Assembly (NCBI GenBank): GCA_043803945.1
Contig: JAZDJN010000078.1
Span: forward strand, 1-10,591
DNA from: a bacterium
GTDB lineage: Bacteria > Bacteroidota > Ignavibacteria > UBA10030
Reading direction: 5' to 3'
Length of the DNA: 10,591 nucleotides
Part shown: in pieces, positions 286 to 10,362 of the stretch
How the letters are laid out: each line of letters opens with the position of its first letter
Position numbering within the stretch: position 1 is the stretch's first letter
Notes under the pieces: model-generated
What the model saw: the letters and a program-made list of their open reading frames with translations, nothing else
What the model was told of the DNA's origin: nothing
The model's database searches: none
Program-made: the position numbers and the translations under genes

Positions 286-3200
286 TTAATTTTCCGTCAA
301 ATATTCCGCCATCAACTCCGCCTGCTTCAGAACCGTGTCGATTGCTTTCTGCTGTTTGTCTGGCGGATAGCCGTACTTTGTCAGAGTACGTTTCACCAGC
401 ACCATCAGTTTCGCTCTTGCACTCTCACGGATAGTCCAGTCGATGGTAGCATTCTTCTTTACTTTATCTGCAATTTCTATCGCAATCTCTTTTAGAATTT
501 TATCGCCCAAAACCTGAACCGCACTATCGTTGACTTCCAATGCGTTATAGAAAGCAACTTCGTCTGTTGTCAGACCAAGTTTCTCTCCTTCTTTGTCTGC
601 TTCCTTTATTTCCTTTGCGATTCTAATGAGCTCTTCAATAATCTGAGCGGTCGTCAGCAAGTTGTTCTGATACCTTTTGATTGATGCTTCAAGCATTTCT
701 AAGAACTTCCTGCTCTTTACAAGATTGGTTCTCATCCGACCCTTGATCTCATCGTTGAGTATCTTCTTCAGCAGTTCGAGCGCAAGGTTCTTATGCTTCA
801 TCCCCTGCACTTCTTGCAGGAATTCCTCTGATAATATTGATATATCCGGCTTCTTAATACCGGCAGCATCAAAAATGTCAATGACTTTGTCTGACGTAAG
901 CGCTGAGTCCACTATTTGCTTGATCGCAGAATCAATGTCGGCAGATGATTTTCCTGTCCCCGTGCCTTCAAATTTCACCAACCGTGCTCTCACTGCCTGG
1001 AAGAAGGCCATTTCATCCTTGATCGTAAGTGCAGACAGGTGTGGAATGGATAATGCGAACGCCTGACTAAGCAACGATACTTCTTTAACAAATCGGCTTT
1101 TCCCATCCTGCAATCCTAAAACGTGTTCTTCTGCTTGAAGTATTATTGAGAGCTTTTCTTTTGGCTCGCCGGTAAAGAAACGCTTATAGTTAAACCCTGT
1201 GCTGCCCGGGTAATATACCATAGGTTCGGCAGCTATGATGTCTTTTTTTGTTTTACTGGTCTCTGAGAACAATTGCTTCACGACTTCAAGTTTTTCAATC
1301 ATTGCAACTACAGCCTGCGCTTGTGTTTCAGCCGGATTGCCCCTGCCTCCTGCATCTCCATAAAACTTGAGCGCATTCTTTAAATCGGAGGCAATTCCAA
1401 GATAATCAACGACGAGTCCTCCGGGTTTGTCCTTGAAAACCCGATTCACTCTCGCAATAGCTTGCATCAAGGTATGCCCACGCATCGGCTTATCGATATA
1501 CATCGTGTGCAAACAAGGCACGTCAAAACCGGTAAGCCACATATCACGGACAATGACCAATTTCAAATCATCACTGGGATCTTTCATCCTATCAGCTAAG
1601 CCCTGTCGTTGCGATTTAGTAGTGTGATGTTTTTGCATCGCAGGTCCATCATCGCTCGATGCAGTCATCACCACTTTGATTGCACCTTTTGTAAGATCGT
1701 CATTGTGCCATTCGGATTTTAGTTCGATAATTTCGTTGTAGAGATCAACCGCCACACGCCGACTCATCGCAACTATCATCGCTTTGCCTTCGGTTACTTC
1801 TTGCCGCTGTTCATAGTGTGAGACAATATCTCGTGCAAGATTCTTAAGCCGGTTCTCATTGCCGATAATTGCTTCTAATCGTGCCCACTTCGCCTTGAGT
1901 CTCTGCTTCTCAGTTATCTCTTCATCTTCTTCCAACTCTTGATCAAATTCTTCCAGCAGCCGTTTTCCCTCGTCATCCAGATTCACTTTTGCCAAACGGC
2001 TTTCGTAATAGATTCGTACTGTTGCTCCATCTGCGACCGATTGAGAAATATCATAGATGTCAACGTACTGGCCAAACACTTGCGGTGTGTTGACATCCGT
2101 TCCCTCGATGGGTGTTCCTGTAAATCCGATATAGGTTGCATTCGGTAATGCATCCCGCATATATTTAGCAAAGCCGTATGCTATGCGTGTGCCGATGACT
2201 TCTTTCGTCTCCTTGTCCTTTACATCTTTGGTCACTGCTTCAAAGCCATATTGTGTGCGATGAGCTTCATCAGCAATGACGACAATATTTCTCCGGTCTG
2301 AAAGCTGTTCATAAACCGCTCTGGACTCTGAGCTTGTCGAAGAGTCCGGCATAAACTTCTGTATTGTCGTAAAGACAATGCCCCCGCTTGCTACGTTTAA
2401 TAATTGTTTCAAATGTGGTCGGCTATTGGCTTGTACCGGTTCTTGTCGCAGCAATTGCTTCGATGCTGCAAATGTATCAAACAACTGGTCATCCAGGTCA
2501 TTGCGGTCGGTGATGACAACAATGGTAGGATTCTGCATTTCAGGAGCAGTGATAAGCTTACCGGCAAAGAACACCATGCTTAGACTTTTTCCGGAGCCTT
2601 GGGTATGCCAGACTACGCCGCCTTTTTTGCTGCCTATAGCACCCTCACCCGGCCTCTCCCAGGGGGAGAGGTGTGTATCGCCGACATTAATGAGATCGGT
2701 AAGCTTCTCGAGAGTTAGTTCAAGTTTGTCAAGAATGTCTTCGTTAGAAAAGCGAACAACGTGATAACCTTGAGAAGTCAGGTATTCATCTCTCACCTGG
2801 TCACGTTGTTTTTGCTCTTCAATCTGATGGACACCTCCGTCTAATTCAACGACCAACTTTTTTTCGTTGCAATAAAAATCTGTAATGTATGGCCCAATCT
2901 GATGTTGTCTTCTAAATTTCAGATGATGAAACTTTCTATCTCTGACAACATGCCAGAATATTTCTTCCGCTGGAGTTTGGCGCTTCCGCAATTCTCTTGC
3001 TTCATTCACAAGACTTGAAAACAGCACCCCACCCCTATAATTTACGAACGGAATATCTCCCTCCCTCTGGGAGGGATTAAGGGAGATTATTCTTCCCTCC
3101 CTTTGTGAGGGATTAGGGGAGGTTTTCCTTCCCTCCCTTTGGGAGGGACCGAGGGAGGGCATAGAATAGCCCGCCGCTCTAATCGTGCTCTCTATTGCTT

Positions 3201-4098
3201 TATTGACAGCGTAGTATTGATGATAAGCAGCCAATTTCTTTTCTATTACAACCTGCTTTATACCCACACCCTCGTTCCCTCTCCCAGCGGGAGAGGGATG
3301 GGGTGAGGGTCTTATAGCTTTTTCAAATACGATGAAGTTTCGGATAAGATCGAGCACTGTTGCTGGATTCAGCATGCCTTTAAGCAGCACTTCTAATTGC
3401 GGGATGAACTTTGATGCCTCTTTGCTGCCATCAATACTTTTCCAAGTCATAAAGCGGTTGAATCCAGCCGATACACTCCCGGCTCGGCATTCCATTCCAT
3501 CTGAAATAATACAGATGGCATTGTAGGTAAATAAGCTTGGTATTGTAGCTTTGTATGTTTGGATTTGTTCGTATGCTTTTTGCACAGTGGCAGTCTCATC
3601 CGAAGCATTTTTCAATTCGATGACTACTAAAGGAATACCATTGATGAAAAGGACAATATCCGGACGCTTGTTCTGGCCTGCCCCACCGGAGGCGGGGTTC
3701 TTCTCAACTATGGTATATTGATTGACAGCTAAGAACTCGTTGTTGAATGGTTCCTCAAAATCAACCAGCGCTACTTCGTAGCTTCGTTCGTAGCCGTCTT
3801 GCTGGTATGGGACACGAACCTTCTCGATGAAGTATTGATGGAATATTTCGTTATTGTGCAGCAGATCGGGTGAGTAAATGTGCAGCACTTTCTGTATCGC
3901 TTGCTCTCTTGCGCTCTCTGGAATATCCGGATTGAGGCGTGCGATGCACCTTCGCAGGCGATTGATTAGTACGATTTGCTCAAATGATTCTCGCTCAGCA
4001 TATTCAGCCCCGGGTGCGATTGCAAGGCCATGAACATGCTCCCAGCCTATATTCTGCAATTCTTCGATTGTAATATTTTCAATCGTGCTTTCGATCAT
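286..4098 (-). CDS. hsdR: Type I restriction endonuclease subunit R with an internal DUF559 domain
   Basis: 1270-aa ORF. Nuclease motif RPDIVLFINGIPLVVIELK, Walker A HTQGSGKS, DEAH box, FTGTP, MWLTGFDVP, QAIARVNR, and a DUF3387-like C-terminus (IDWTIRESARAKL...YGYPPD). Confidence 0.97.
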   Translation of the reverse strand: MIESTIENITIEELQNIGWEHVHGLAIAPGAEYAERESFEQIVLINRLRRCIARLNPDIPESAREQAIQKVLHIYSPDLLHNNEIFHQYFIEKVRVPYQQDGYERSYEVALVDFEEPFNNEFLAVNQYTIVEKNPASGGAGQNKRPDIVLFINGIPLVVIELKNASDETATVQKAYEQIQTYKATIPSLFTYNAICIISDGMECRAGSVSAGFNRFMTWKSIDGSKEASKFIPQLEVLLKGMLNPATVLDLIRNFIVFEKAIRPSPHPSPAGRGNEGVGIKQVVIEKKLAAYHQYYAVNKAIESTIRAAGYSMPSLGPSQREGRKTSPNPSQREGRIISLNPSQREGDIPFVNYRGGVLFSSLVNEARELRKRQTPAEEIFWHVVRDRKFHHLKFRRQHQIGPYITDFYCNEKKLVVELDGGVHQIEEQKQRDQVRDEYLTSQGYHVVRFSNEDILDKLELTLEKLTDLINVGDTHLSPWERPGEGAIGSKKGGVVWHTQGSGKSLSMVFFAGKLITAPEMQNPTIVVITDRNDLDDQLFDTFAASKQLLRQEPVQANSRPHLKQLLNVASGGIVFTTIQKFMPDSSTSSESRAVYEQLSDRRNIVVIADEAHRTQYGFEAVTKDVKDKETKEVIGTRIAYGFAKYMRDALPNATYIGFTGTPIEGTDVNTPQVFGQYVDIYDISQSVADGATVRIYYESRLAKVNLDDEGKRLLEEFDQELEEDEEITEKQRLKAKWARLEAIIGNENRLKNLARDIVSHYEQRQEVTEGKAMIVAMSRRVAVDLYNEIIELKSEWHNDDLTKGAIKVVMTASSDDGPAMQKHHTTKSQRQGLADRMKDPSDDLKLVIVRDMWLTGFDVPCLHTMYIDKPMRGHTLMQAIARVNRVFKDKPGGLVVDYLGIASDLKNALKFYGDAGGRGNPAETQAQAVVAMIEKLEVVKQLFSETSKTKKDIIAAEPMVYYPGSTGFNYKRFFTGEPKEKLSIILQAEEHVLGLQDGKSRFVKEVSLLSQAFALSIPHLSALTIKDEMAFFQAVRARLVKFEGTGTGKSSADIDSAIKQIVDSALTSDKVIDIFDAAGIKKPDISILSEEFLQEVQGMKHKNLALELLKKILNDEIKGRMRTNLVKSRKFLEMLEASIKRYQNNLLTTAQIIEELIRIAKEIKEADKEGEKLGLTTDEVAFYNALEVNDSAVQVLGDKILKEIAIEIADKVKKNATIDWTIRESARAKLMVLVKRTLTKYGYPPDKQQKAIDTVLKQAELMAEYLTEN
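2323..2347. repeat. In-frame palindromic element in hsdR (family C): GGACTCT-gagcttgtcga-AGAGTCC
   Basis: 7-bp perfect stem around an 11-nt loop. Encodes DSSTSSES in the loop between TTIQKF and the DEAH region. Confidence 0.65.
2641..2671. repeat. Family A palindromic repeat, left boundary: ACCCTCACCCGG-CCTCTCCC-agg-GGGAGAGG
   Basis: 8-bp stem 2653-2660/2664-2671. CACCCTCACCCG (2640-2651) is identical to 7629-7640 in hsdM. Confidence 0.85.
2690..3015 (-). other. DUF559 / Vsr-like endonuclease domain inside HsdR
   Basis: ARELRKRQTPAEEIFW...KFRRQHQIGPYITDFYC...LVVELDGGVH...RDQVRDEYLTSQGYHVVRFSNEDI matches the DUF559 (YcjD-like) signature along its whole length. Boundaries are approximate. Confidence 0.92.
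3058..3160. repeat. Three tandem 36-bp family A-like hairpin repeats (TCCCTCCC-nnn-GGGAGGGA-tail)
   Basis: Units start at 3058, 3094 and 3130. They encode PSLGPSQREGRK / TSPNPSQREGRI / ISLNPSQREGDI. The middle unit has one stem mismatch. Confidence 0.9.
3268..3310. repeat. Solo family A palindromic element in frame in hsdR
   Basis: TCCCTCTCCC-agc-GGGAGAGGGA (3276-3298, 10-bp stem) plus tail TGGGGTGAGGGT. ACCCTC (3268-3273) can pair with GAGGGT (3305-3310). Encodes RPSPHPSPAGRGNEG. Confidence 0.88.
3676..3696. repeat. In-frame 21-bp family B element in hsdR (minus strand CCCGCCT-ccggtg-GGGCAGGC)
   Basis: GC-rich imperfect palindrome encoding PASGGAG just before the QNKRPD catalytic motif. 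It shares both ends with the hsdS element at 6080-6110. Confidence 0.7.
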
Positions 4099-4478: not shown

Positions 4479-5444
4479 TCATGCAGGGAAGAAGTTGATC
4501 ATCGAAAACGTTGATGTCTCAAATAATTTCCCTTTTCGTTGTTGTGGTTGGCTATCCATATCCAAGAATAACTCTGCCCTCAGATATAATTCAAATAATA
4601 ACTTCCAATCGTCCGATTCTTTTGATAATTCTTTTACATTTAAGTCCTTCAACAAATTTTCAGGTACGTTTTCTTTTATATGTTTTGCATTGATAGTACG
4701 TCCATGGGTAAAATATTTGCTTGTTGAGGTCAAATCCTCCGCGATGGCATCGGCTTTCATTTTTGCATCTTTATGATCCTTCAACATATATTTGCAGAGA
4801 AACTTTTTTGCGCAATCTTTTGCAAATGCCATAGATTTATCACAATGATCGATAAAACCGCTATCAAGAGCAGAGAGTTGCACCAAATACGCCTGATACG
4901 GTTTCCCCTCTGTAATTGCCTGACTCGTTAACTCTTCTAAACGATTACGTGCATGGACAAATGATTGTGCTGAAATCCATTGTTGGACTCCACCTTGAAT
5001 AATTTGAATTTGCGCGTCGATAGGTCCAAGTTCTGAAGTGACTCCCATAATAATTTCATCTGCGCCTAATGCAAGCATAGTAGCTGCACTCTTTGCCACA
5101 TTTGGAACTATGACTCTGAATTGTTTTTTACAATAAGCTCGTATCATTTCGACAATCTTTTCTGCTACTGTACCAGCCCCACCGCCACTTTGTATAATAA
5201 GATCAATATTCTTTGTCTCTCCGACCGATTCCAGCATACTGCCGACCATGTGGATGTCATTGTAGTCTATAGGATAGTTCAATTTGGCAACATAGAGAAG
5301 AATTTTTGTCCCGAATTTATCTTCTATTTTCTTAATTAATTGTTGACGGCGTTTAGTTTGTGTATGTGCATCCTGAACTTCCTGTTGTACCTCTTGTAAG
5401 ATTTTGTCATACCGATTCTGTATTTCTCCTTGCTTATCTTCCAT
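4479..5444 (-). CDS. ClpP/crotonase-fold serine protease (SDH_sah / S49-like)
   Basis: Motifs IDLIIQSGGG, VIVPNVAKSAATMLALGADEIIMG, LGPIDAQ and THGRTI. Start placed at Met14 of the 334-aa ORF (ATG 5444, preceded by GAAGGGA); the alternative start is 5483. Confidence 0.85.
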   Translation of the reverse strand: MEDKQGEIQNRYDKILQEVQQEVQDAHTQTKRRQQLIKKIEDKFGTKILLYVAKLNYPIDYNDIHMVGSMLESVGETKNIDLIIQSGGGAGTVAEKIVEMIRAYCKKQFRVIVPNVAKSAATMLALGADEIIMGVTSELGPIDAQIQIIQGGVQQWISAQSFVHARNRLEELTSQAITEGKPYQAYLVQLSALDSGFIDHCDKSMAFAKDCAKKFLCKYMLKDHKDAKMKADAIAEDLTSTSKYFTHGRTINAKHIKENVPENLLKDLNVKELSKESDDWKLLFELYLRAELFLDMDSQPQQRKGKLFETSTFSMINFFPA

Positions 5445-5494
5445 TTTCTTCCCTTCGTTATTTTTTTGCAGGAATCTCCACATTTTAAGAGTAT

Positions 5495-6697
5495 TTAGTT
5501 TTCCCCCACCCTCACCTCACCGTTCATTAGCTTTGGCAAGAGTGTATCCCGCAGTTGTGTGAGTGTGCGAATTTGTATGGTATTTTGATAAATCTTCTTG
5601 TCTAACGGACTTGCTTCCTGCTGGAATTTCTTTACTAATTCTTTCGGTGCGATAACATTTTCCAGTTTATTGAAATCTTCTTTTCCGATTGAGCCAAATA
5701 CTGTGCCGTTATCCTCAAACTGTTTTATCCGAGCCATCAATGATCGAAGTTTGTAATAAGTGTAAGTACTAAACGTATTTTCTGTTTTGTATCGAAATGC
5801 GGCAACACCACGACCAATACAACAATCTTCTATTGCAATATTCATATCACCAACCGGAGCTCTAACACTCACTAATGTGTCGAACTTCTTCGCCAATCTT
5901 GTTGGTTCTGTTGTATACACTCTTGGCTCAGGGAAGCGAACTCCAAAATCTGTTCTTCCTTGAAAGAAAACCATTCCATTCTTGGCTTCATTCAATGCCG
6001 ATCCGGACGGAGACTGACCCATTGTGAAACCAAATTCATCTTCTATCGTACCGCGATCCCACCCCTCTTCCGCCTCTTCCCCGCCTTCACTTTCGTTTCG
6101 GCGGGCAGGCACAAACCACTGCCTGAACAACGTTTCAGCCAAAGCTTCGAGGGTTTTATTTTGGCGTTGGAGCAAATCTATTTTCTCATGAAGTGAGATT
6201 AGTGTTTCAGCAATCGAGGCTTGCATTTCAATTGAAGGAATGTCAATCGTTAATTCAGACAACATCGCATTGTTTAAACTCGCTCTTGTAGTCATTGATG
6301 ACATATTGGACACGGTAGCTCTAAATCTTGGCGAACGGAAAAAAAAACCAGCGTATTCTGGCAATATCCTTATGGTTCCATTAGGTCTCAATCTTTTTGT
6401 GAATCCGTTAAATGTTACATTGGGATAATCTACTAAAGCAACGGAACTCATTCCCAAATCTTCATCTGTTTCACTTGTTCGCGTTAAAAAAACATCACCT
6501 CTTATGACAGAACAACTTTCTCTTTCTTTCTCTGTTGAATTTACTAAGGACGTTAATATTTTAGGAACAAAATAATTATCAAAAATATCCATGTATGAAA
6601 GAAAACCATATCCAAAACCAAATTCTTCCCGTGGTTTTGAAAGTCCCGAGGAAAATTCATATACATCTCCAAGTTTATATTCTTTCCACTCAACCAT
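5495..6697 (-). CDS. hsdS: Type I RM specificity subunit S
   Basis: Two-TRD layout: EWKEYKLGDV start, central conserved helix (QASIAETLISLHEKIDLLQRQNKTLEALAETLFRQWF) and C-terminal LTQLRDTLLPKLMNGEVRV. Likely start is ATG 6697 (Met21 of the listed ORF), overlapping the upstream stop (ATGGTTGA). Confidence 0.95.
   Translation of the reverse strand: MVEWKEYKLGDVYEFSSGLSKPREEFGFGYGFLSYMDIFDNYFVPKILTSLVNSTEKERESCSVIRGDVFLTRTSETDEDLGMSSVALVDYPNVTFNGFTKRLRPNGTIRILPEYAGFFFRSPRFRATVSNMSSMTTRASLNNAMLSELTIDIPSIEMQASIAETLISLHEKIDLLQRQNKTLEALAETLFRQWFVPARRNESEGGEEAEEGWDRGTIEDEFGFTMGQSPSGSALNEAKNGMVFFQGRTDFGVRFPEPRVYTTEPTRLAKKFDTLVSVRAPVGDMNIAIEDCCIGRGVAAFRYKTENTFSTYTYYKLRSLMARIKQFEDNGTVFGSIGKEDFNKLENVIAPKELVKKFQQEASPLDKKIYQNTIQIRTLTQLRDTLLPKLMNGEVRVGEN
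6080..6110. repeat. In-frame 30-bp family B element in hsdS (CCCGCCT-tcactttcgtttcggc-GGGCAGGC)
   Basis: Encodes PARRNESEGG between FRQWFV and EEAEEGW. CCCGCC/GGCGGG stem. Same termini as 3676-3696 but in opposite orientation. Confidence 0.75.
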
Positions 6698-7381
6698 TAC
6701 TGTTTTTGCCTTTACTCTTCTTTGCACCTCTGCTATGCGCTCTCTTTTTAATCGCATCCTTCATTTGGCTCAATGCCGGCGATACATCAGAAGGTGATTT
6801 CTTCAAGTCAACATCCATTGCTTCTTCCAATTCCTTCACTGTAGGCATTTGGCTTTTCAACTTCTGTGGAAGCGATTGCGCAAGTTTATAGTCCGCAACA
6901 CCCAGCTGGGTTGAGATACCCTTGAGCGTAAACCATATCACGGTGTCATTGGGAGTTTTACACAGCAGCACTCCAATGGTCGGGTTATCGGTTTTCCCTT
7001 TTATCTACTCGTTCACTGTATTGACATAAAAATTGAGTTTGCCTGCAAACTCCGGTTTAAAATCCCCGATTTTGAGTTCAAAGATCACAAAGCAGTGTAA
7101 ATGATAATTGTAGAACAACAAGTCCAAAAAGTAATCATCCCCGTCAACATTCAGGTTATACTGGTTGCCCACGGAAGCAACGCCACGGATGCATACAATC
7201 TTGTAACGGGAGGCTGCAACTTTGTGGTGATCTCTAATTTTGCAACGGACGGTTGCAACATTGGAGGCGTAGCCGATTGTGCGGGGCTATCGGGTAATGT
7301 TGCAAGTGGCGCTTGCAAGATTCCGAATTGCGGATAAGCAACAATGCTCCGATATTCTTTTACACTGCTTTTACTTGCCAT
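6690..7381 (-). pseudogene. YhcG/DUF1016-family PD-(D/E)xK nuclease pseudogene
   Basis: The frame from about 7172 reads VGNQYNLNVDGDDYFLDLLFYNYHLHCFVIFELKIGDFKPEFAGKLNFYVNTVNE*IKGKTDNPTIGVLLCK...MPTVKELE, which is the DUF1016 C-terminal signature with an in-frame TAG at 7005-7007. The upstream ORF 7151-7381, in another frame, has DUF1016-N-like AYPQF..LQxxVAKL..LPW. The total length is far shorter than an intact family member. Confidence 0.88.
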
Positions 7382-7383
7382 TG

Positions 7384-9066
7384 TTATGACTTGTTCAGAT
7401 TATCGATGTTGATTTTTGAAAGATTCTCTTTAATACGATTATTGAGTTCTGCTTCTTCTGCAATCTGCTTTTCAAGTTCGGTTTTAAGCTGTGAGAACCT
7501 CTCCGCAAAATTAAAATCGTCCTCATCATCTGGCAAGCCAATGTATCTGCCGGGAGTGAGTACGTAATCCTTTGCTTTCACCTCTTCAATCGTAGCGCTC
7601 TTGCAAAAACCAGGGATGTCGGTGTATTCACCCTCACCCGACATACGGTCACCCTCTCGCTTGCCTTCTTTGTTATGTCCCTCTCCCGCTGGGAGAGGGA
7701 TTAAGGGTGAGGGAGGCGAGGGAGCAGAACGCCAATTGTGATACGTCCTCGCAATTCGTGTAATGTCCTCCGCTGCCAAATCTCTGTTCTTCCGGTTAAT
7801 CAAAAAGCCGTGGTTGCGTGCGTCAATAAACAAAATCTGCCGTGTCCGCTTCTTTTTATTCCTTCGCATAAACCAGAGGCATGCCGGTATCTGCGTATTG
7901 AGAAACAATTTTGTCGGCAGGTTTACTATGCAGTCAATCAAATCGTTTTCAATCAATGCTTTCCGTATATCACCTTCGGTGTTGGTCTTAGTAGTAAGCG
8001 AACCTTTAGCCAATACAAATCCTGCCAAACCATTAGGTGCAAGATGGTATAAAAAATGAAGTATCCATGCGTAATTTGCATTGGCAGCTGGAGGTGGAAG
8101 TTTCTCACCTAAAATGGTCCATCGGGCATCGTCACGCAGCAGCTCGCCGCTCCAGTCGCTGTCGTTAAACGGAGGGTTGGCAATAACGTAGTCTGCTTTC
8201 AGATCCTTGTGTGCATCATTCAGAAAAGAACCTTCGTTGTTCCACTTCACATTGCTGCTGTCAATACCGCGAATGGCGAGATTCATCTTCGCTAATCGCC
8301 ATGTGGTTTGGTTGCTTTCCTGCCCGTAAATAGAAATGCGGTCTTTGGGATTGATGCTGAGTTTTTTTCCATTGTATTTTTTGTAGTAATCGTTGTGGGC
8401 TTCCACAAACTTTTCGCTCTGCACGATCATACCACCACTGCCGAAGCAAGGATCAAATACTCTACCTTCGTAAGGTTCCAACATATCAACAAGCAGCCAC
8501 ACCACGCAGCCCGGAGTGTAGAACTGTCCGCCTTTCTTTCCTTCCGCCAACGCAAACTCACCGAGGAAATATTGAAACACACTGCCGAGCACGTCTTTGC
8601 TTTGCGCTTCTTTCGTGCCGAGTGCAGCACTGCCAACGAGATCGATCAAACCGCCAAGACTTTGCTTGTCCAATTTCTCCTGCGCAAATACTTTGGGCAG
8701 AACTCCGCGCAAGCTTGTGGGATTGTCCTTTTCTATCGCCTCCATTGCATCGTCAACATCTTTACCTATTGTGGGAAGCTTTGCTCTCCCTTGCAGCCAC
8801 TTCCACCGTGCAGAGGGCGGAACGTAGAAAACTTTCTCGGCTGTGTATTCGTTTTTATCTTCTGGATCGGCACCCTCGCTCTTTTGTTGTGCAACGAGCT
8901 TTTGGTACAATTCCTCGAACGCATCGGAGATGTATTTTAGGAATATCAAGCCCAACACAATGTGCTTGTATTCGGCTGCATCCATGTTCTTGCGGAGCTT
9001 GTCGGCTGCTTTCCAGAGTTTCTTTTCGAGCGGTTCTTCCTGTTCAGATTTTGGTTGTTTTGCCAT
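7384..9066 (-). CDS. hsdM: Type I RM N6-adenine methyltransferase subunit M
   Basis: HsdM N-terminus (LWKAADKLR...[16 protein letters not shown]), GQFYTP, SAM-binding DPCFGSGG, catalytic NPPF, and [10 protein letters not shown]. Confidence 0.97.
7631..7713. repeat. Family A inverted doublet in frame in hsdM
   Basis: CCCTCACCC (7631-7639) and GGGTGAGGG (7705-7713) bound the segment. It contains TCCCTCTCCC-gct-GGGAGAGGGA (7678-7700) and a decayed partner (CACCCTCTCGC, about 7650-7660). Encodes [12 protein letters not shown]...MSGEG. Confidence 0.88.
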
Positions 9067-9279: not shown

Positions 9280-9499
9280 GTTACCTTTTGGAATTTCCGA
9301 AATACCTTTTTCTATCCCGAAGTGACCTTTTATTATCTCCACGATACCTTTGAATTTGTTTCGGAAGCCTTTTTCTGCCTCAGACATACCTTATTGTATC
9401 TTGGAGACACCCTTTAATACCCCTTACAGACCTTTTACTATCCTTCAAATACTTTTTTCTCTGTCGGAGGGAACTTTTAATATCTTTAGGTTACCTTTG
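9280..9499. repeat. Degenerate tandem array with 21-bp period, about 10.5 units
   Basis: ACCTTT-like cores at 9283, 9304, 9325, 9346, 9367, 9388, 9409, 9430, 9451, 9472 and 9493, usually with a TATC-like box 9 nt after the core start. Confidence 0.85.
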
Positions 9500-9654
9500 A
9501 GAGTGATTGATAAATGGTAGGGAAGCATTCCTCTTCCTATCCTTGAATTTTCGGCTATAAATCTATTAAACCTTCTTCAGTGTGTATTGTCTATTAAGTA
9601 TATTATCCCTAACTATCTTACAGTTCAAAATACCAATCAAAGGAGGAAGATTTA

Positions 9655-10362
9655 ATGAAGACCACCAGACTGATGATTGTTTTTTCTGTCTTGCTGTTAG
9701 TTGCTGCCTTGTTTAGCACAGGTTGCAGCGACAAGAACAATGTCAATGGGCCTGAACGCATCGATTTCGAAAGTGCTCAATTTGCCCTTATCGATTACAC
9801 AGACATTGAAAATGCGATCGAAGACGGCGACTCTTATAACGCAATCGCATTCAATACCTCGATGTTAAATTATAGTTTCATGGATGGCGACCGGCCTTTT
9901 ATGCCAGGGAATGGACCAATGCGAGGAATGGGATGGTTTGATCGCTTTGATTTTGGGAAACATTTAGGAATGATCTTCAGGCGCTTGAATTTTACAGACG
10001 ATCAAAAAGTTGCAGTCAAAGAACTCACAAAGAATTTCCATGATGCCATGAAGCCGCTCGTGCAGCAATTCCATGAAGCGAATAAGACCATCATTCAAGA
10101 TGCCAATGCAAAACGCAAGGTCATTGCGGAAGATCTGAAGGCAGGTACTATCACGCGTGAGCAAGCCGGTGCGAAATTCAAGGAGCTCAACGACGCTACG
10201 CGCAAACAAATCAATGAAAATGATGCTTCCAAGACGATCAAAACGGATATGTGTGCTGAGCGAGATAAACTCTTTGCCGGAGTGAAAGCGAAGCTTGTTG
10301 GAGAACAGATTACCAATTGGAATAACTATATTTCAAAAATAAAGGATCCTTGCAGTCTGTAA
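9655..10362 (+). CDS. Predicted lipoprotein with a helical Spy/CpxP-like region
   Basis: AGGAGG SD at 9641-9646. Basic N-terminus, hydrophobic stretch and lipobox FSTG-C. A Gly/Met-rich stretch is followed by LNFTDDQKVAVKEL (LTxxQ-like) and a helical Lys/Glu-rich region. The function call is tentative. Confidence 0.8.
   Translation: MKTTRLMIVFSVLLLVAALFSTGCSDKNNVNGPERIDFESAQFALIDYTDIENAIEDGDSYNAIAFNTSMLNYSFMDGDRPFMPGNGPMRGMGWFDRFDFGKHLGMIFRRLNFTDDQKVAVKELTKNFHDAMKPLVQQFHEANKTIIQDANAKRKVIAEDLKAGTITREQAGAKFKELNDATRKQINENDASKTIKTDMCAERDKLFAGVKAKLVGEQITNWNNYISKIKDPCSL

Follow-up and report, generated by a model that had tools for sequence, protein, structure and literature searches.

How does a complete nuclease domain come to lie, in frame and bracketed by inverted hairpin repeats, within the gene of another enzyme, and does it serve that enzyme or an element that moves on its own account? 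The question is raised by contig C78 (10,591 bases; this whole contig is referred to below as the window) of genome G000 (5.54 Mb, a 118-contig draft), the minus strand of which is a type I restriction-modification operon. Its hsdR gene (286-4098, minus strand), which encodes the 1270 aa restriction subunit R (P0001), is host to a DUF559 nuclease domain flanked by hairpin repeats, here named the cassette. The results presented below indicate that the behaviour of the cassette resembles that of mobile DNA of a kind not described before, one that moves between genes and leaves them unbroken. The comparative parts of this reading are well supported, and we infer the enzymatic mechanism that would go with it. 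An earlier sequence-only reading had proposed a candidate mobile element at this position; its observation is confirmed and its interpretation is supported in part.

A DUF559 nuclease between outward-facing repeats within hsdR

Aligning the DNA with L007, L008 and L010, three loci whose site is empty, places the whole cassette at 2638-3166 (minus strand; approximate ends), in the HsdR loop just before helicase motif I (Walker A). Compared with empty alleles it adds a net 528 nt (176 codons), made up of a left repeat array, the DUF559 core and a right repeat, and the spacer at the site measures 198 aa in the window HsdR against 22 aa in the empty alleles. The host motifs AAYHQYYAV (3205-3231) and WHTQGSGKS (Walker A, 2584-2610) bracket the cassette, and both junctions run on into conserved HsdR sequence. 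The reading frame of the cassette contains no stop codon and is read through as part of HsdR, the repeats being translated as Pro/Ser/Gly/Glu/Arg-rich linkers.

The Vsr-like PD-(D/E)XK nuclease core (residues 353-471, NYRGG...DLIN; 2686-3042, minus strand) was delineated by Pfam, by a whole-genome family search and by a match to PDB entry 3hrl. Pfam DUF559 (PF04480) matches residues 364-468 (2695-3009) at E 1.6e-33, with a score of 115.3 bits (cut-off 20.6) and over profile positions 4-106 of 109, and the whole-genome search scores 120.6 bits, in agreement with the earlier claim of a complete DUF559/Vsr-like domain between YHQYYAV and Walker A. The insert has no other Pfam content than DUF559 and weaker MTES_1575 and DUF2726 matches, and no known transposase family was found in it. 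The nearest solved structure is 3hrl (sequence match E 1.2e-15), which with Vsr (1cw0) represents the solved Vsr-like nucleases; a sequence comparison of DUF559 with 3r3p gave nothing at E up to 1. Residues E379, D407, E418, D420, H424 and D433 (P0001 numbering) show little or no variation among 112 distinct copies, and these acidic and His residues are likewise invariant or nearly so (at least 90%) in a set of 41 sequences that includes free-standing ones; from what is known of the Vsr family we take them to be catalytic. The ratio of nonsynonymous to synonymous substitution rates (dN/dS) is 0.06-0.22, as calculated from five unsaturated HsdM-borne pairs and one nearly saturated pair. Judged by these invariant residues of catalytic type and by purifying selection, the nuclease looks active.

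The right, or downstream (3'), end (2641-2671, minus strand) consists of a hairpin, CCTCTCCC-CCT-GGGAGAGG, followed by the outward tail GGGTGAGGG, and encodes LSPWERPGEG. On the plus strand the same positions read CCCTCACCC-GG-CCTCTCCC-AGG-GGGAGAGG, that is, tail and then hairpin. As single-stranded DNA this end forms an 8-bp hairpin with a z-score of -1.25, which is not significant. The left, or upstream (5'), end (3058-3165, minus strand) is formed by three tandem 36-nt units encoding PSLGPSQREGR KTSPNPSQREGR IISLNPSQREGD. Each unit is, in coding orientation, a C-rich tail and then a CCCTCCC/GGGAGGG hairpin, and on the plus strand a hairpin, TCCCTCCC-nnn-GGGAGGGA, with a G-rich tail; the middle copy has one stem mismatch. 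The units are 100, 83 and 72% identical to the reference copy, Tandem Repeats Finder reports a period of 36 with 2.5 copies and 87% matches, and the array folds as single-stranded DNA with a z-score of -3.06. The order in coding orientation is thus three times C-tail plus hairpin, DUF559, and hairpin plus G-tail, with the tails facing outward here and in related loci. This is the arrangement described in the sequence-only reading, all elements of which are found at the coordinates given there. The one Rfam hit obtained links the triple repeat (3051-3169, minus strand) below threshold to the alphaproteobacterial small RNA family ar14 (24.7 bits, E 0.03; gathering score 58.8), probably a compositional resemblance through shared CCUCCC hairpins.

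An in-frame ATG (3160-3162, minus strand; residue M313) is present at the upstream edge of the cassette. Both this codon and the absence of stop codons had been pointed out before; the ATG, however, is not conserved, being absent from P0002 and the other filled homologues, and it was rejected as a conserved internal start of general occurrence. The start codon of a free-standing DUF559 gene on contig C85 sits in a similar TTCTATGC context. No clear target-site duplication is visible in the alignment with empty loci, in which CTAT, shared near both ends, looks like part of the ends. The idea that both ends carry an identical target duplication of a single hairpin was rejected for the window, where stems and loops differ.

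Intron or intein identity was rejected as well. No Hint, intein or splicing Pfam family is detected in P0001 at E up to 0.01, no Rfam intron family is detected in 2300-3500 at E up to 0.1, and the frame reads through, in line with the proposal of a non-spliced passenger domain.

Closely related HsdR alleles are empty, and nuclease and host have different histories

The insertion site could be parsed in 116 HsdR homologues. A constant 22-residue spacer (NKAIESSIKASGxNGSKKGGVV) is present in 60 of them, and in the other 56 the spacer is filled and exceeds 100 residues (162-247 in a parsed subset). Together with most parsed metagenome loci (46 of the 47 with a readable insertion site are empty, and one, L071, is a filled HsdR), these empty homologues define the empty site that alignment had been expected to reveal. 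The contigs of P0002 and P0003 were not among these metagenome loci. The filled P0002 and the empty P0003 are identical at 779 of 781 positions from the site to the C-terminus.

It had been considered that close HsdR homologues might all carry the domain, with congruent phylogenies. Instead, the closest relatives of the window HsdR are empty alleles, and the DUF559 and HsdR trees are incongruent. On the HsdR core tree (insert removed, 116 rows) at least nine state changes are needed, and the starred branches force six. The window HsdR belongs to a clade of 10 rows (support 100), eight of them empty alleles, within which P0001 and P0002 each pair with empty alleles of their own. The DUF559 tree unites P0001 and P0002 (support 98) inside a 9-row clade (support 96) that also contains the cassettes carried by the most distant HsdR clade. 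Approximately unbiased (AU) tests on a 41-row core set, with groups named after the trees had been seen, reject the grouping of the DUF559 tree on the core tree (p 1.4e-55) and a single DUF559-bearing clade (p 2e-31).

A sliding comparison of P0001 adds that, over residues 296-329, 11 of 17 positions match the empty alleles and 25 of 28 match the donor-like clade, while the adjoining windows on both sides favour the empty relatives. This tract includes host residues (ESTIRAAG versus ESSIKASG). Thus, a short flanking host tract moved together with the cassette, as would be expected if hsdR alleles exchange sequence by gene conversion.

Some smaller inserts were encountered in the same alignments. 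P0091, an HsdR of an empty clade, has a 33-residue spacer, NRAVESTLRASGFSLHPVGGAGGGLGDKRGGVV, that starts with the GF typical of filled alleles; it may represent a solo insert or the trace left by a deletion. In P0005 and P0008, which are otherwise empty, another short in-frame insert (LPERLGRAG and PPERPPARAGLGRAG, respectively) splits TWKS|ADGRK, and this suggests further small palindromic inserts in the HsdR family. Finally, an HsdR of another family in the phylum (L104, G126:C1:1927500-1932500) has a cassette at the same pre-Walker A site, with six 25-residue repeat units in tandem on the downstream side of the cassette; the N-terminal domain of this HsdR contains several solo repeats.

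The repeats are part of the unit

An association between DUF559 and the hairpins had been predicted, and flank enrichment is observed in two independent samples. Repeat-type peptides occur in 48 of 103 upstream and 43 of 105 downstream flanks of the domain, compared with 11 of 426 control windows. Perfect hairpins with pyrimidine arms occur 43 times in 13.3 kb of flanks (3.2/kb) versus 15 times in 166 kb farther off (0.09/kb). The second, more distant sample comprised 80 DUF559 loci on viral contigs, with 81 other small open reading frames (ORFs) as controls. A flank hairpin is present at 39 of these 80 loci and at 15 of the 81 controls, and hairpin density is 2.07/kb in the flanks, 0.73/kb in the flanks of other small ORFs, 0.57/kb in far intergenic DNA and 0.247/kb in far DNA. 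Twenty-one viral-contig loci have a hairpin in each flank. Taking the best pair of each locus, nine are inverted, loop included, two fit in direct orientation only and one is symmetric (fitting both ways); the orientation of the best pair is not assignable in the remaining nine.

The HsdR junction is read in three frames across alleles (LSPWER, PSPxGRG and LPLxGEG), and the DNA confirms the frame difference between the window and L071 (LSPWER) on the one hand and L087 (PLPLGEG) on the other. Since the same junction appears in three frames, it is the DNA palindrome and not the peptide that is the conserved entity.

As a separate observation, a study of programmed inversions lists "DUF559 domain-containing protein" as enriched (odds ratio 14.3) among predicted inversion targets (PMC9881135); inverted hairpin ends of the present kind might be what that screen detected.

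The cassette occurs in other hosts

Fusion to unrelated host proteins, also foreseen, is found in frame in many cases. All 120 listed longer relatives of the domain contain HsdR-, N6_Mtase/HsdM- or HsdS-type domains (about 95, 23 and 2, respectively, by count of the Pfam column), and their source labels include cultured genera, for example Leadbetterella and Algoriphagus. In a wider survey of the best 150 representatives at 50% clustering, the 72 of at least 230 aa were classified. Their hosts are HsdS (24), Eco57I/MmeI-type proteins (8), HsdR (5), HsdM (5), N6_N4 methylase (2), Type ISP (1), DUF1156 with GIY-YIG (1), and RecG, CCA/polyA polymerase, shikimate kinase, CobW, SpoU and a class I aminoacyl-tRNA synthetase (1 each), the other 20 having DUF559 and no other domain. 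The housekeeping hosts carry the same repeat-type linkers. Named genome records place relatives in many phyla, including a second HsdR site, HsdM, leucyl-tRNA synthetase (LeuRS, in L096) and free-standing genes. At metagenome loci the same DUF559 subfamily lies in frame in HsdM at two loops, and in HsdM proteins with a cassette solo repeats fill the alternate loop of the same protein.

Solo repeats and their distribution in the genome

Two solo repeats lie in frame elsewhere in the operon. One is a nested palindrome (tail-hairpin-tail; 3262-3312, minus strand; peptide RPSPHPSPAGRGNEGVG) in hsdR, 45 codons upstream of the cassette, which adds a net 30 nt relative to L007 and folds as single-stranded DNA at -19.2 kcal/mol (z -5.87). 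The other is an insert of 29 extra codons in hsdM after TYHNWR (7642-7728, minus strand), with a single-stranded fold z-score of -4.4. Where the window HsdM has 34 residues, the closest HsdM homologues have the five residues TGEGE. This loop could be parsed in 55 homologues: a 5-residue spacer is present in 25, and about 20 others have diverse repeat-type inserts, all ending in GEG. Other HsdM proteins (L075 and L076) carry a DUF559 cassette at this very loop.

The strict 9-nt hairpin has eight sites in the 5.54-Mb genome, two of them on this 10.6-kb contig. Within G000 the type with a 3-nt loop is confined to this contig, where it lies inside genes, and the other six sites have loops of 6-7 nt. 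There is thus no sign that the cassette seeded solo repeats elsewhere in G000, and the suggested spreading of solo repeats finds no support in this genome. A repeat-type hairpin also lies in frame in a 1099-codon open frame at C76:2086.

G000 contains four full DUF559 genes, and the one on C85 has one hairpin at each end. Two partial DUF559 fragments (profile positions 67/68-108) were noted on contig C86 (1141-1263 and 20897-21022). In addition, a composite repeat of about 170-260 bp is present in at least 11 copies (C27:66134, C40:23007, C87:327736, C99:7844, C101:72640, C106:2813, C114:23225, C91:100804, C96:27811, C5:5201 and C2:35981). This element, which lacks DUF559, combines a pair of inverted TM-like hairpins (CCCCCTTT...AAAGGGGG, tailed by GGGGGAT/ATCCCCC) with GTATTTACTCAGCA-like ends; a GC-rich hairpin in the middle is optional. 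It resembles two cassette-type ends that have no cargo between them.

Across 151 genomes of the phylum, 16 contain the strict hairpin and 78 contain DUF559. The local link is strong: outside G000 there are 47 hairpin sites, and at least 6 of them have a listed DUF559 within 300 bp.

Comparison with known systems

In REP/REPIN repeats with RAYT (REP-associated tyrosine transposase), an enzyme gene is bracketed by short GC-rich inverted palindromes, and the REPs are extragenic. The cassette is similar in being a single small enzyme gene bracketed by its own inverted GC-rich palindromes, with cargo-less palindromes elsewhere and with tandem and inverted doublets. It differs in that the enzyme is a Vsr-like PD-(D/E)XK nuclease (DUF559) and not an HUH/Y1 transposase, in having neither a start nor a stop of its own and lying in frame inside genes, and in the weak genome-level co-occurrence of its repeats with the enzyme; nor were many dispersed extragenic copies found, G000 having eight strict hairpins. 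Of the analogy with RAYT drawn in the sequence-only reading, the inverted cognate palindromes around an enzyme gene therefore stand, and the HUH transposase and the dispersed extragenic copies do not; as the enzyme is not an HUH transposase, the analogy is functional only.

Rickettsia palindromic elements encode no protein and have no known cognate enzyme. They share with the present repeats that in-frame translated copies are tolerated in surface regions, as in the hsdR and hsdM solos and the many variants at one HsdM loop. The repeats described here differ in bracketing a nuclease domain and in forming a separate sequence family that spans many phyla. An intein would likewise be inserted in frame at a conserved position, carry a nuclease and lie near a nucleotide-binding motif, but the cassette has no Hint domain, stays in the mature protein, and ends in DNA hairpin repeats and not in splice junctions. 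Compared with insertion sequences and miniature inverted-repeat transposable elements, inverted ends are present, and there is no clear target duplication and no known transposase family.

Vsr, DUF559 and 3r3p have been placed in one clade (PMC3424549). The EDxHD homing endonucleases, of which I-Bth0305I is one (PMC3239194, PMC2677866), resemble the cassette in being selfish nucleases of Vsr-like fold at one conserved host-gene position. Presence and absence among close alleles, tree incongruence and a short co-converted flank, all seen here, are further points of likeness. Unlike them, the cassette involves no intron or intein and is kept in RNA and protein; it has no NUMOD or helix-turn-helix DNA-binding extension, a catalytic core of about 119 residues standing alone between the repeats; and it has hairpin-plus-tail terminal inverted repeats. 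Moreover, the cassette subfamily occupies many unrelated sites and hosts, whereas a classical homing endonuclease keeps to one site.

There is a likeness in sequence pattern to the BoxC/PIT/TM_ECO repeats, published as intrastrand triplex motifs. The solo at 3277-3309 fits the strict TM_ECO pattern (CCCTCNCCC N3-6 GGGNGAGGG N3 GGGNGAGGG), and the one at 7679-7713 fits it with a second loop of 5 nt; patterns of TM_ECO type match twice in the window and not once in 200 shuffles. The cassette's own ends are looser variants, with CCCTCCC stems and short tails. In E. coli, according to Holder et al. (2015; PMC4666352), the repeats are always intergenic and have no associated mobility gene, inverted pairs of the TM_ECO motif occur, and BoxC/TM motifs are tied to local genome instability. 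Here, in contrast, they lie inside hsdR and hsdM, are translated and bracket a nuclease. In E. coli K-12 (NC_000913.3; L100 8210-8430) a canonical TM_ECO/BoxC copy is located about 170 bp downstream of ycjD, a gene annotated as encoding a DUF559 domain-containing protein. Downstream of ycjD, a degenerate hairpin over the stop codon is followed by a partial duplicate of the ycjD 3' end. A description of this cassette was not found in the literature searched, which left subscription journals mostly outside its coverage.

A probable mobile cassette and its alternatives

Taken together, it is rather probable that the cassette is a homing-like, non-spliced selfish mobile element. On this reading the nuclease, made as a passenger domain, would nick or cut cassette-free alleles or hairpin (cruciform or triplex) repeats, and recombinational repair from a filled copy would then copy the cassette in. 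Between homologous genes this would amount to homing-like gene conversion; at new sites the repeats may serve as short landing-pad homology. Selection would retain only in-frame insertions in tolerant surface loops. Tandem slippage could alter the number of end repeats, and recombination between the two ends could remove the nuclease, so that a solo tail-hairpin-tail element stays behind. The restriction complex may have put the domain to use once it was fixed. A hairpin-ended nuclease gene would, if this is correct, spread by read-through and not by splicing, and inserted domains of this kind would be mobile elements. It would also explain the patchy "very-short-patch-repair endonuclease" annotations in restriction-modification genes across many phyla. 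The cassette sites map insertion-tolerant loops and linkers in HsdR, HsdM, HsdS and other enzymes.

A number of observations weigh against a selfish mobile cassette. Every member of a 26-row HsdR clade is filled, and the groups of the AU tests were chosen with the trees in view. The two ends in the window are different hairpin variants (CCCTCCC versus CCTCTCCC), and are therefore not exact inverted copies of each other. Flanking hairpins are absent from two of the four full DUF559 genes of G000 (C54 and C73) and, by the strict criterion, from the 200 bp around 41 of the 80 viral-contig loci. DUF559 is present in 11 of the 16 genomes with the hairpin and in 67 of the 135 without it, a weak co-occurrence that we count against a strict dependency between hairpin and DUF559, and genome G037 has eight hairpins and no DUF559 at all. 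Cleavage, an excision joint or a target-site duplication was not seen; the only sequencing run found (sediment, contigs, a tenth of the sampled words) has no piece that spans the cassette, and no RNA run was among those listed. Lastly, a host was identified for 52 representatives, and for 46 of these it is a restriction-modification or DNA-methylase protein, a bias that random insertion does not predict.

This bias, like the uniform restriction-modification hosts of the 120 listed longer relatives, is what would be seen if DUF559 were an accessory nuclease domain useful to restriction-modification complexes, kept by selection and shuffled between subunits via recombinogenic repeat-encoded linkers. 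Its possible roles would be extra nicking or cleavage, or methylation-sensitive DNA processing, and presence and absence would reflect gain and loss of a useful domain. That DUF559 is found in any of the three subunits of one complex fits this explanation, as does the intactness of HsdR's own motifs. Large clades that keep DUF559 intact, with low dN/dS and invariant catalytic residues, speak for it too, and hence against selfish mobility. In Caulobacter, a DUF559 protein is reported to cause methylation-dependent DNA damage (PMC12907096). The same cassette and ends are, however, present in RecG, CCA/polyA polymerase, shikimate kinase, CobW, SpoU and aminoacyl-tRNA synthetase/LeuRS, where a restriction-linked function makes no sense, and free-standing DUF559 genes carry the same inverted hairpins. 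Conservation of the DNA palindrome with a varying peptide frame is not predicted for a linker selected as protein, and near-identical alleles differ by the cassette only. We regard an accessory domain as the main rival explanation, though an unlikely one.

Alternatively, the hairpin-plus-tail (BoxC/TM-type) repeats themselves might be the real mobile agents, moved by a trans-acting enzyme or by replication slippage, with DUF559 as mere cargo or as a gene that attracts repeats. Solo repeats are far commoner than cassettes and occur in the same loops in many independent variants, and the hairpins of G037, the composite elements of G000 and the instability ascribed to such motifs in PMC4666352 all agree with this. 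Yet the cargo is always DUF559, no other type having been seen in searches that all began from DUF559; the active site is under strong purifying selection even in housekeeping hosts and free-standing copies; and hairpins are enriched at DUF559 over other small ORFs of the same viral-contig loci. Mobility of the repeats alone thus appears improbable. The contig is short and belongs to a fragmented draft, and repeats can mislead assemblers, so that a chimeric contig, a mis-joined free-standing DUF559 gene or a gene-calling error also has to be considered. Such an artefact can practically be dismissed: the same in-frame architecture at the same codon position is present in the 56 filled HsdR homologues (jgi, ena, lgn and ncbi labels), it recurs in named genome records, and the junctions are continuous with conserved HsdR.

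Going beyond the cassette in hsdR, we tentatively propose, as a conjecture less likely to be true than not, that DUF559 nucleases are the missing structure-specific enzymes of the BoxC/PIT/TM_ECO repeats and recognise their hairpin-plus-tail fold. With two inverted repeats, such a nuclease would form a minimal transposon-like unit of about 0.5 kb, lacking its own start and stop, that can lodge in frame in almost any tolerant loop and can collapse to solos. If true, this would be a new class of mobile element, and one that naturally drives domain insertion, its main reservoir being restriction-modification genes. DUF559 would be an enzyme candidate for repeats known since the 1990s, and the question is testable in E. 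coli K-12, where ycjD lies beside one repeat.

Other features of the operon

The host protein is by all its features a type I HsdR, with an HSDR_N nuclease, an SF2 motor and C-terminal domains, and with hsdM and hsdS as neighbours. Its Pfam architecture is HSDR_N (residues 3-215), DUF559 (364-468), SWI2_SNF2 (489-725), T1R_D3-like and T1RH-like_C, and the PD..ExK nuclease, GSGKS, DEAH and FTGTP motifs are all intact. The methylase subunit gene hsdM (7384-9066, minus strand; 560 aa) was identified by Pfam N6_Mtase and HsdM_N, and the specificity subunit gene hsdS (5495-6757, minus strand; 420 aa) by Pfam Methylase_S; repeat scans of hsdS find no repeat insert. A diverged array of repeats of about 21 nt and ACCTTTT type, for which we offer no explanation, occupies 9283-9500, upstream of an LTXXQ-family ORF (9655-10362). 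Within the operon, a gene for a ClpP-like serine protease of SDH type (4479-5483, minus strand) is located between hsdR and hsdS.

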